Assembly (NCBI GenBank): GCA_964392285.1
Contig: CAYMOW010000003.1
Coordinates: forward strand, 1-62,317
Origin: an uncultured Candidatus Saccharibacteria bacterium
GTDB lineage: Bacteria; Patescibacteriota; Minisyncoccia; Phycocordibacterales; WO2-35-19
Reading direction: 5' to 3'
DNA: 62,317 nucleotides
Positions 60,621 through 62,317 of this stretch are shown here, in pieces. Made by a program: the position numbers and the translations under genes. The notes beneath the pieces were generated by a model, which did not search any database, was not told the origin of the DNA, and was given only the letters and a program-made list of their open reading frames with translations. Each line of letters begins with the position of its first letter. The stretch's first letter is position 1.

Positions 60621-60667
60621 CGAGCTTGAAGTTGGAAGAGAGTGGGAAAATAAAAATCGAGAAATCT

Positions 60668-60778
60668 GTTCTGGCGCCTAGCTACTCTCCCCTTTTCAGA
60701 GTACCATCGCCTCTACGAAGCTTAACTTCCGTGTTCGGAATGAGAACGGGTGTGGCCTTCGCGATAAAGCACCAAAAC
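60668..60778 (-). rRNA. rrf: 5S ribosomal RNA
   Basis: The minus strand reads guuuuggugcuuuaucgcgaaggccacacccguucucauuccgaacacggaaguuaagcuucguagaggcgaugguacu...ggagaguagcuaggcgccagaac. The conserved CCGAACACGGAAGUUAAGC core is present. Helix I pairs the two ends over 12 bp. Confidence 0.9.
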
Positions 60779-60854
60779 AGGTGTCTCGATTTTATTAACA
60801 ATTATCAATTTATATTTGATCCCTCGAATGCTGACCCGATTATAAAAATCGGGT

Positions 60855-60990
60855 TGGCGGAGGGTGACAGGACTCGAACCTGTAAACCATCCCTAGCCAT
60901 TTGAACAACTGTGTCAAAATCATTAACCTTTCTTAAGGGTTGATTTTGACTTTTCAAACAGCTGGGAGAGCTCGCACCATACCCCCCCGC
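60855..60990 (-). ncRNA. tRNA-like RNA with a canonical T arm, a 7-bp acceptor stem and an encoded GCCA. A helical rod of about 78 nt replaces the D and anticodon arms. It could be an intron-containing or degenerate tRNA, or a tRNA mimic.
   Basis: The T arm is acagg-ttcgagt-cctgt (60883-60867). The acceptor pairs ggggggt (60987-60981) with accctcc (60865-60859), and the third pair is G:U; G-CCA follows. The rod spans 60967-60890 and contains 15+13 bp. I could not build a standard cloverleaf by hand. Confidence 0.45.
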
Positions 60991-61372
60991 AAAGAACAAC
61001 ATTCGAAGAATCAAAAATCAAATAGGTTAAGCAAGTTGGGACTATTGTCCCATGTGGCAGGAAAAAACTGGTTTCCAAATTTCCTAATAAGATCGGAAAA
61101 TTAGTACGCCTCGGCTCAATGCGTTACCGCACTTACACCTAGCGCCTATCAACGTGATCATCTCTCACGATCCTAAACGATTCCTAATCTTGAGGCTGGC
61201 TTCCCTCTTAGATGCTTTCAGAGGTTATCCAAACCCGACTTAGCTACTCGGCAGTGCCCTTGGCAGGACAGCCGACACACCAGAGGTCAGTTCAACTCGG
61301 TCCTCTCGTACTAGAGTCAAATCCTCTCAAGAATCAACGCCTGCAGTAGATAGGAGACCAACCTGTCTCACG

Positions 61373-62018
61373 CTTGTTACCACACATTACTGTGTGCAAT
61401 GGACTATAGCTTTTTCTGTTTTCTTCTGTAATTGAAGGGGAAGGTACCCTCCCGGTGTACACTAGGCTGTAATCTCGTGGATCATCTAAGCCTCGGTGAC
61501 TCTTCCTCCCCCATTACAAAAGAAAACAAATTACTGACGTTTAGTCTCTACGGGTGTTTATGAATTGAATAGCGCCGGGAGAGGCTGTGCACAACCTCTC
61601 CCTATGGCGACCACCATCTAAGCCCCGGAATACTCCGTGCGGACCTAGAACTTCTGGTAATCACCACTATTCAATTCACAAACTTCCCTCGGTATTAACC
61701 TTGCTACTAGATTCTATCTACTAGCTACTGGCCTTCACCGATATTAGTCAGTTTGTTCATTTTGCATTTTGATTTTTTAATTTTCAATTTGCATTATGAC
61801 CGCCGTGATTTGATTGATTTCCCGCCTCTTCGGCGGGTCGCCGATGAGGCGACTACTATACTTAATTTCATAAACGAAACGTTTTATAACAGTTTTCTTT
61901 TATCTCAAGGGATTCAGACTGCTGAGGTTAGTAGTTAGGTATTAGTAGTCAGCATACAGGTTTAGGAAATTTATTTTTTCCTGACTACTGACTACTGACT
62001 ACTGACTACTATCTCTCA
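61373..62018 (-). mobile_element. ORF-less 646-nt group I-like intron in 23S rRNA, at the site corresponding to about E. coli 2593 (the I-CreI / Cr.LSU-type site)
   Basis: The exon junction restores AGACCGU|CGUGAGACAG (E. coli AGAACGU CGUGAGACAG). The 5' exon ends in U and the insert ends in G. An internal AGAGACUAAACGUCAG (plus 61534-61550) resembles the Tetrahymena J6/7-P7 CAGACUAAAUGUCGG. Several long-range complementary blocks are present. There is no endonuclease-sized ORF. Confidence 0.7.
61981..62010. repeat. Tandem heptanucleotide repeat (ctgacta x4.3) near the 5' end of the intron
   Basis: The sequence is ctgacta ctgacta ctgacta ctgacta ct. A complementary tagtagtcag at 61944-61953 can pair with it. 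Confidence 0.9.
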
Positions 62019-62317
62019 ACGGTCTGAACCCAGCTCGCGTATCTTTTTAAATGGCGAACAGCCATACCCTTGGGAGCTTCTCCACCCCCGGGATAAGATG
62101 AGCCGACATCGAGGTGCCGAACTCCGCCGTCGCTCTGGACGCTTAGGCGGAACTAGCCTGTTATCCCCGGAGTAGCTTTTGTCAGATGAGCTCTGGCCGC
62201 GTCTAACGCGAACCATCGGATCACTTAGCTCTGCTTTCGCATCTGCGCGACACTTACGTCTTGCAGTTAAGCCAGCTTGTGCCTATACACTATCGCCATG
62301 GTTTCCATTCACGGCTA

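Follow-up and report, generated by a model that had tools for sequence, protein, structure and literature searches.

What might a transfer RNA (tRNA)-shaped sequence without an anticodon be doing between the 23S and 5S ribosomal RNA (rRNA) genes of a bacterium? The question is raised by contig CAYMOW010000003.1, of which the whole analyzed stretch of 62,317 nt (positions 1 to 62,317) is here referred to as the window. On its minus strand the 3' part of the 23S rRNA gene is followed by the spacer, the element at 60987–60855, the 5S rRNA gene and a vWA-domain gene. The element therefore lies in the 23S–5S spacer, outside both rRNA genes, and Rfam matches confirmed this location, which a first-pass annotation made from the sequence alone had already given. 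Based on its structure and on its counterparts in related genomes, we suggest that it is a tRNA-derived, non-decoding 't-element' that would be co-transcribed with the rRNAs and would serve as a cutting signal for tRNA-processing enzymes. We give this explanation about an even chance.

Structure of the element

The element has a total length of 133 nt and is composed of the following parts, listed in 5' to 3' order. Numbers starting with L denote loci on contigs of relatives.

60981–60987, minus strand: 5' strand of the acceptor stem, GGGGGGU (7 bp with 60865–60859, third pair G:U)
60974–60980, minus strand: positions 8–9 and D-loop remnant, AUGGUGC (GG retained; aligns to the D loop of L048)
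60884–60973, minus strand: rod of 90 nt replacing the anticodon arm (minimum free energy (MFE) and centroid folds, pair check)
60867–60883, minus strand: T arm, ACAGG-UUCGAGU-CCUGU (canonical T loop; G52-C62 and G53-C61)
60866, minus strand: extra C between the T stem and the acceptor 3' strand (direct reading; window variant only)
60855–60865, minus strand: acceptor 3' strand ACCCUCC (60865–60859), discriminator G73 (60858) and encoded CCA (60857–60855)

The element thus possesses the acceptor stem, canonical T arm, discriminator and CCA of a tRNA, and its T loop fits U54 U55 C56 R57 A58. All pairings of the tRNA-like parts named in the first-pass annotation, including the G:U third pair and the extra C, could be verified. 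The other four tRNA-like variants described below have no extra nucleotide at this junction. A register of 8/5 pairs, as in selenocysteine tRNA (tRNA-Sec), leaves an A:C mismatch at the eighth pair, as had been stated before. Neither a D arm nor a 17-nt anticodon arm can be formed, again as first described; in place of a D stem and D loop there are AUGGUGC and an orphan GAGC.

The rod starts with a base helix (GAGCU/GGUUU), continues with UCCCAGCUGUUUGAA/UUCAAAUGGCU(A)GGGA and ends in a capping hairpin of 10 bp (GUCAAAAUCA/UGAUUUUGAC) plus a 4-bp tip. The MFE fold of the element reproduced the acceptor stem, the previously proposed rod with its capping hairpin and the T arm at −55.6 kcal/mol (z = −4.6), and none of 200 shuffles was as stable. 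As a test against chance, we scanned for TTCRANY within a 5-bp T stem, with a 7-bp acceptor stem and NCCA behind it. The 62-kb window has a single occurrence, at 60987; of 300 simulated windows, one contained the pattern.

Variants in related genomes

Contigs of relatives were obtained via the vWA protein and via a LAGLIDADG protein of a 23S intron in relatives. We added one locus by a DNA pattern scan for the conserved spacer hairpin TTTCCTGYCRCATGGGRYAAT, which gave nine genome and four metagenome matches, the useful ones being L019, L020 and L028. An exact-protein look-up of the neighbouring FtsW/RodA returned no further contigs, a search for further alleles via the open reading frame (ORF) overlapping the cassette matched itself only, and the contigs of a 72%-identical relative (P0002) end within the 5S and do not reach the slot. 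The resulting set comprises seven variants from a single narrow clade of Patescibacteria. Besides the window element these are, with their scores against the Rfam tRNA model (cut-off 29 bits) where it was passed:

L005, 1261–1381: tRNA-like, 41.3 bits
L019, 670–792: tRNA-like, 37.0 bits
L048, 1363–1435: tRNA-like, 45.5 bits, 73 nt
L050, 1260–1338: tRNA-like, 41.7 bits, 79 nt
L003 (identical to L004), 935–1028: type B
L001, 242–323: type B

L048 and L050 have the size of a normal tRNA. A D arm is present in L005, L019, L048 and L050, and L005 and L019 additionally show U8, A14, G18 G19, A21, a 4-bp D stem, a 5-nt variable loop and stems of 7/5 bp. A usable anticodon loop, i.e. a loop of 7 nt on a 5-bp stem, with U33 and a purine at position 37, was found in none of the variants. 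The loop is replaced by 52 nt in L005 and by 51 nt in L019; L048 has a 6-nt loop or, alternatively, a 7-bp stem with a tetraloop, and L050 carries G at position 33 (no U33) on a stem with three G:U pairs. The length of the anticodon arm ranged from 18 to ~90 nt and the sequence of the rod region was very different in every variant.

The window element aligns to L048 at AUGGU(GC/A)GAGCUCU and at GGuUUACaGGUUCGAgUCCuGUC. In this alignment AUGGUGCGAGCUCU of the window stands opposite AAUGGUA-GAGCUCU of L048, and GAGC and GGUUU of the rod correspond to the D-stem 3' strand and the variable loop of L048. The D-stem 5' strand of L048 (AACUCA) is missing from the window copy, which is why no D arm can be drawn there. 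The window copy hence looks like an L048-like tRNA that has lost the D-stem 5' strand and gained ~60 nt in the anticodon arm. Judged by this alignment and by the homologues that pass the Rfam tRNA model, the module derives from a tRNA. The earlier suggestion of an intron-containing or decayed tRNA accordingly stands for decay as the origin and falls for the intron, given the inconsistent ARAGORN calls reported below.

The two cassettes of L001 and L003/L004, here named type B, fold as clean cloverleaves with a 9-bp terminal stem and three hairpins followed by N-CCA. They have no T-loop motif, and compensatory differences were found between the two. On sequence grounds, type B may have arisen from the tRNA-like type by rearrangement. 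The seven cassettes share only a terminal helix, 7 bp or longer, that leads into NCCA; a T arm is present in five of them. We also observed a 10-mer, AGGGATGGTT, in both the window cassette (60887–60896) and the type B cassette of L001 (260–269; E ~0.03–0.05), and a resemblance of GGUUCUGGUCUGUC in L001 to GGUUCGAGUCCUGUC in the window.

Conservation of the tRNA upper half

For the five tRNA-like variants we aligned the strands of acceptor stem and T arm, with the bulged C of the window copy removed by hand. Standard pairs were found in 60 of 60 cells of the resulting 12-bp helix and both sides had changed at 9 of its 12 pairs, values that none of 500 shuffles reached. When the 3' partner was slid by 1–3 columns, pairing fell to 40–57% of cells. 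G52-C62, G53-C61 and the T loop UUCGAnU were invariant; the other three T-stem pairs change on both sides. The covariation analysis across relatives that the first-pass annotation had proposed thus revealed a covarying acceptor/T-arm helix and a rod that is not conserved. The acceptor sequences and discriminators (G, A, U) differ among the variants, and G3:U70 occurs in the window copy only.

L005 and L019, whose vWA proteins are 92% identical, allow a closer comparison. Their cloverleaf core is 92–100% identical, whereas identity is 78% in the rod interior (56–80% across rod and neighbouring spacer) and 56–71% in the neighbouring spacer. Together with the covariation of the upper half, these sequence differences argue that selection is acting on the tRNA upper half and not on the anticodon arm.

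A conserved frame with exchangeable cassettes

The cassette is enclosed by conserved structures, here referred to as the frame.

60997–61015, minus strand: 5' strand of the outer (frame) helix, UUUGAUUCUUCGAAUGUUG (pairs with 60833–60815 in the whole-module fold)
60988–60996, minus strand: single-stranded leader, UUCUUUGCG (GUUCUUU invariant in 7 of 7 variants)
60835–60853, minus strand: post-CCA hairpin, CCCGAUU-UUUAU-AAUCGGG (in 7 of 7 variants, 7–8 bp)
60815–60833, minus strand: 3' strand of the outer (frame) helix, CAGCAUUCGAGGGAUCAAA (whole-module fold and frame alignment)

In the alignment of the seven variants 97.8% of the cells of the frame helices were paired and 8 of 26 pairs had changed on both sides (5 of 19 in the outer helix, 3 of 7 in the post-CCA hairpin); none of 500 shuffles scored as high. 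Whole-module folds with flanks reproduced the frame for the window (z = −8.5), L003 (z = −6.5) and L005 (z = −3.8). The post-CCA hairpin is not followed by a U run and is hence not terminator-like.

Comparison of close relatives showed that the content of the frame is exchanged as a unit. L001 and the window are 99.2–99.6% identical over 5.6 kb and encode an identical vWA protein. Their identity breaks exactly at window 60855–60990, where L001 carries a different sequence of 88 nt ending in NCCA, and resumes at 60854, directly past the CCA. L003 and L004, which represent two independent runs, are 98.0–100% identical to the window in the matching stretches and differ at 60844–60990. With both L001 and L003 the break begins right after the ...CUUU leader (60991/60990). 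Since genomes of the Candidate Phyla Radiation (CPR), which includes Patescibacteria, usually have a single rRNA operon (PMC11270868) and since the adjacent single-copy genes are the same, the cassettes of the window, L001 and L003 are alleles of one locus in different strains.

The module as a whole is accessory, being present or absent among close relatives. Of L049 and L050, which agree at 99.5% over 1239 nt of 23S plus spacer and at 100% in the 5S, only L050 carries it. Spacers without the module were found in L007, in L008/L009/L010/L020/L026, in L028, in L029/L030, in L049, in L055 and in the group L038–L046. The empty sites of L007 and L049 show a replaced segment and not a clean insertion, so that a transposon-like insertion with target duplication was rejected; the TTAA repeats at the module edges are ambiguous in this comparison. 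A phage origin is unsupported as well, as a scan of viral contigs with the T-arm/acceptor pattern gave 0 matches and BLAST of the module against phage records gave no match. Further copies of the module, or targets complementary to the rods, were found nowhere outside the slot in the window and all loci.

Other parts of the rRNA operon vary between these strains, too. The interior of the 23S intron (window 61446–61683, L003 328–477) is unrelated sequence in L003/L004, with flanks of 98–100% identity. As intron interior and spacer cassette have both been replaced, two separate segments of the rRNA operon were swapped between these strains. In relatives, a 23S intron carries LAGLIDADG_1 homing-endonuclease genes (L005 255–710, L048 232–723, L050 235–723, L049 1897–2385, L055 219–707), and its site lies near the sarcin-ricin loop (~2657), ~0.5 kb upstream of the spacer slot. 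Homing repair tracts could carry spacer cassettes along. The loci L038–L046, which share an identical LAGLIDADG protein (P0146), have three different hairpin blocks at the start of the 23S–5S spacer. They contain no tRNA-like module, and the spacer is a mosaic in that lineage as well. Furthermore, L032 (4250–4520; also L033 and L036) has a 5S 5' half with an insert of ~110 nt just upstream of the intact 5S, and several 5S pieces with inserts are located downstream of the 5S in L029 (940–1290).

Genomic context

The genes around the element are the following.

61085–62317, minus strand: 3' part of the 23S rRNA with a group I intron inside at 62018–61373 (3' end approximate; Rfam LSU and Intron_gpI matches)
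60669–60776, minus strand: 5S rRNA gene (Rfam RF00001, 78.6 bits), beginning 78 nt past the CCA
60620–59193, minus strand: vWA-domain gene, downstream of the 5S

The 3' end of the 23S was placed by comparison with L003, and the exon junctions are a direct sequence reading. Homologues of the neighbouring genes bear the source labels Patescibacteria, Paceibacterota or Zambryskibacteria, and the order 5S-vWA-FtsW/RodA is kept among relatives. Because no promoter-like or terminator-like site was found on the rRNA strand between 23S and 5S, we infer that the module is co-transcribed with them. Genuine tRNA genes were found neither in the window nor in any locus examined.

The group I intron of the window (61373–62018, minus strand, 646 nt) reached 45.5 bits with the Rfam model Intron_gpI, just below the cut-off of 50. 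It is inserted after the U equivalent to E. coli U2593, between a 5' exon ending in ...GACCGU and a 3' exon starting with CGUGAGACAG. It contains no ORF and starts with four copies of the heptamer AGTAGTC (~61983–62010). Just past the 23S end a spacer hairpin, UUUUCCUGCCACAU-GGGAC-AAUA-GUCCC (61038–61067, minus strand), is conserved in relatives with and without the module and may be part of the 23S or 5S processing signals. Two ORFs of 69 codons (60805–61014, minus strand) and 92 codons (60626–60904, plus strand) run across the element and the 5S. As the cassette variants do not preserve them, they are almost certainly spurious.

Proposed mechanism and alternative explanations

If the element is a t-element, its history in the cell might be as follows. 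The module would be transcribed together with 23S and 5S, and the 19-bp outer helix that joins its ends would be a likely substrate of an RNase specific for double strands, for instance RNase III or Mini-III, freeing the module from the precursor. RNase P would trim the 5' end and the 3' end would be trimmed to the CCA, with cleavage by RNase P and/or RNase Z predicted at the module ends. A terminal helix with NCCA is what bacterial RNase P needs in a model substrate, and the T arm is a further determinant for enzymes acting on tRNA ends. The stacked acceptor/T-arm helix with NCCA would be the part kept by selection, as the minimal shape for RNase P at the 5' end and for the tRNA enzymes of the 3' end. 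The anticodon arm would be free to shrink, to extend into a rod or to rearrange, since under this proposal nothing reads it. The inner cassette is exchanged between strains, probably by homologous recombination via the conserved frame and the flanking rRNA. Like known t-elements, the window element combines a non-canonical cloverleaf with a conserved T arm, here in a presumed longer precursor.

The structure, its descent from a tRNA, the covariation, the lost anticodon, the conserved frame and the pattern of swapping, presence and absence are established here; we infer the co-transcription, the identity of the cutting enzymes and excision as the function of the module. As relatives do without it, the most likely 'function' of the module is to have itself cleanly cut out of the rRNA precursor, while delivery of a tRNA-shaped small RNA is another possibility. 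The first-pass annotation had considered a mimic of RNase P/Z substrates that separates 23S from 5S. The mimic is the best-supported mechanism in our analysis, but a role simply as the separator does not fit a module that is optional and has a 19-bp helix of its own.

Several points weigh against the t-element. Its cleavage ends, the enzymes that would cut it and the stability of its RNA are predictions. L007, L008, L028, L029, L049 and L055 process their rRNA without the module, which is therefore not needed for 23S/5S maturation and can be called a 'processing signal' for self-removal only. The module ends do not coincide with the rRNA ends: the CCA stands 78 nt before the 5S (60776) and the 5' end (60987) ~95 nt past the 23S, so that no end of the window element is the mature end of a neighbouring RNA. 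Whether RNase P would accept type B, which has a stack of 9+6 bp and no T loop, is less certain. Known rules for RNase P or RNase III offer no explanation for the invariant GUUCUUU leader or for the hairpin behind the CCA. Finally, the variants are seven in number and all from one narrow clade.

We regard two further explanations as unlikely. In one, the module specifies a stable small RNA of tRNA shape that has its own function, such as a decoy or competitor for tRNA-binding enzymes or toxins or a regulator, with the rRNA operon serving merely as a strong promoter and the replacement between strains reflecting diversifying selection. The wholly different cassettes in contigs of 99.2–99.6% identity, with breaks at the predicted RNA ends (60990 and 60855), would agree with this, as would the cloverleaf-like junction and NCCA kept by all cassettes, the strong covariation of the upper-half helix, and the D-loop GG retained even in the window copy, which suggests that the tRNA elbow still forms. 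The G3:U70 pair of the window could be added, as it is the main determinant for AlaRS and functional in minihelices. However, this pair is confined to the window, acceptors and discriminators (G, A, U) differ, and the cassettes share nothing specific beyond a generic tRNA upper half; the rods have no common motif and no counterpart elsewhere in the window or the loci, and close relatives manage without the module. A more elaborate form of this idea is doubtful to a somewhat greater degree: the outer helix, GUUCUUU leader and post-CCA hairpin would be a socket from which a Paceibacteria-like clade expresses interchangeable, anticodon-less, tRNA-shaped small RNAs, exchanged as units between co-existing strains, possibly via homing-endonuclease tracts, and acting when free as decoys for tRNA factors or toxins or as aminoacylatable minihelices; if so, they would constitute a new class of tRNA mimics that vary from strain to strain. 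The other of the two explanations is neutral or selfish spacer DNA, i.e. a former spacer tRNA gene that has lost decoding and drifts, and that spreads owing to the recombination arms of 23S and 5S and the repair tracts of nearby homing-endonuclease introns. It would fit the presence/absence polymorphism of L049 and L050 at 99.5% identity over 1239 nt, the mosaic spacers of other lineages, the LAGLIDADG introns ~0.5 kb upstream with an intron interior that is also swapped in the strain pair of the window, the lost D arm of the window and the degenerate anticodon arms. Drift does not, however, predict 100% pairing with nine compensated acceptor/T-arm pairs, an invariant T loop, NCCA in 7 of 7 variants or the covariation of the frame, so that at least the shape is under purifying selection. 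Such selection fits a selfish element that needs clean excision, and here this explanation merges with the t-element proposed above.

Identity with a known tRNA class is far less probable. The ARAGORN and Rfam runs suggested in the first-pass annotation yielded no tRNA, transfer-messenger RNA (tmRNA) or tRNA-Sec call on the window element: ARAGORN in its default, tmRNA and mitochondrial modes called no tRNA or tmRNA, and Rfam tRNA (RF00005, cut-off 29 bits) had no match at E ≤ 10. Only the intron mode of ARAGORN reported, at 60855–60987 (start 60987), a tRNA-Ser(UGA) with a 40-nt intron, which would make the element a working tRNA after splicing of a short intron in its anticodon loop. We consider this very improbable. 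The call relies on a 3-bp D stem including one G:U pair. The same mode gave Ser(UGA) for the window and for L005 but Ala(GGC) for L019, with intron positions that disagree, although the tRNA bodies of L005 and L019 are nearly identical; the calls are artefacts of the intron option, and the intron-bearing tRNA was rejected because of these conflicts. Moreover, the short variants without insert also have no valid anticodon loop (6 nt in L048, no U33 in L050), the inserts of 40–52 nt are far below the size of bacterial group I introns, Rfam found no intron within the element, and bacteria are not known to have a tRNA-splicing endonuclease. A tmRNA-like tRNA domain, the other possibility raised at first, or a relative of tRNA-Sec has next to no probability left. 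G3:U70, the reduced D region and the long helix leaving the tRNA-like domain do recall the end of a tmRNA, and the T arm with a possible 8/5 register, together with a weak match of 16.1 bits to RF01852, recalls bacterial tRNA-Sec. But neither Rfam nor the tmRNA mode of ARAGORN detected a tmRNA in the element, which is a simple 133-nt rod element with no tag reading frame and no pseudoknot region, and neither G3:U70 nor the 8/5 register is conserved in the homologues, which have 7/5 stems. The match to tRNA-Sec is far below the cut-off of 47 bits and covers the 3' half only, and there is no UCA anticodon loop.

Comparison with known systems

The closest parallel to the proposed t-element is found in the archaeon Haloferax volcanii, where, as cited in PMC4326828 from Hölzle et al. 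(2008, 2012), a tRNA-like structure directly upstream of the 5S is a substrate of RNase P and tRNase Z. Both are tRNA-like, non-decoding structures in the rRNA precursor before the 5S. The 3' end of the archaeal element forms the mature 5' end of the 5S, whereas the bacterial one has an encoded CCA 78 nt before the 5S. It also differs by its own 19-bp helix and the hairpin that follows, and by being optional and strain-variable. The t-elements of plant mitochondria are non-canonical cloverleaves with a GGTTCRANYCC T arm that act as cleavage signals (PMC1920247). They share with the module the conserved T arm and the degenerate anticodon part, but they are organellar, flank mRNAs and have no encoded CCA (PMC1920247). 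Cassette swapping within a conserved frame has not been described for them.

The module is also similar to bacterial spacer tRNAs and mosaic 16S–23S spacers, in that a tRNA shape is embedded in the rRNA precursor and blocks are exchanged. Bacterial rRNA operons hold tRNAs that are released by RNase P, and spacer blocks with or without a tRNA are exchanged between operons and strains. Those tRNAs (Ile, Ala, Glu and others) are, however, working ones located in the 16S–23S spacer or after the 5S, whereas the module is non-decoding and occupies the 23S–5S spacer. Another parallel is offered by the intervening sequences (IVS) of bacterial 23S and 16S rRNA, plain extended stem-loops that take the place of hairpin tips within the rRNA and are cut out by RNase III. 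The module resembles IVS as an optional, strain-variable insert of sporadic distribution with presumed excision, framed by a long helix, here a covarying one of 19 bp. Unlike IVS, it is not inserted at a helix tip inside mature rRNA but is located in the spacer, and its tip is a tRNA-derived cloverleaf with NCCA.

Like the eukaryotic mascRNA of MALAT1, the module would use a tRNA-like fold as a signal for processing by RNase P/Z. The acceptor/T-arm parts of L005 and L019 scored 16.8 and 15.8 bits with the respective Rfam model (RF01684), far below its cut-off of 42.5, so that this resemblance is an analogy and not homology. An acceptor/T-arm helix, a reduced D region with GG and a long helix at the position of the anticodon stem are shared with the tRNA-like domain of tmRNA and with D-armless mitochondrial tRNAs. 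Unlike tmRNA, the module has no mRNA-like domain and no conserved alanine identity, and unlike D-armless tRNAs it has no anticodon.

Full-text searches of the literature found no bacterial or CPR description of such an element, and spacers and tRNAs are outside the scope of a systematic published study of CPR rRNA-gene insertions. We place the element with the tRNA-like processing elements, among which its bacterial 23S–5S site, its conserved frame and the exact exchange of cassettes between near-identical strains are unusual, the strain-level swapping most of all.

For annotation, the output of tRNA finders can list such elements as odd tRNAs or as tRNAs with introns; ARAGORN gave Tyr(AUA), tRNA-??? 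and Ser with an intron. In this set, rRNA operons with such elements often lie at contig ends. If the proposed explanation holds, bacteria and the 23S–5S spacer would join haloarchaea, plant mitochondria and eukaryotic MALAT1 as settings of tRNA-like processing elements. The seven variants form a natural series in which, after the loss of decoding, the acceptor/T-arm helix, the elbow GG and NCCA stay selected. Finally, the exact replacement of cassettes in near-identical strains and the presence or absence of the module among close relatives show that horizontal exchange at the single rRNA operon of Patescibacteria affects not only introns but also spacer modules.

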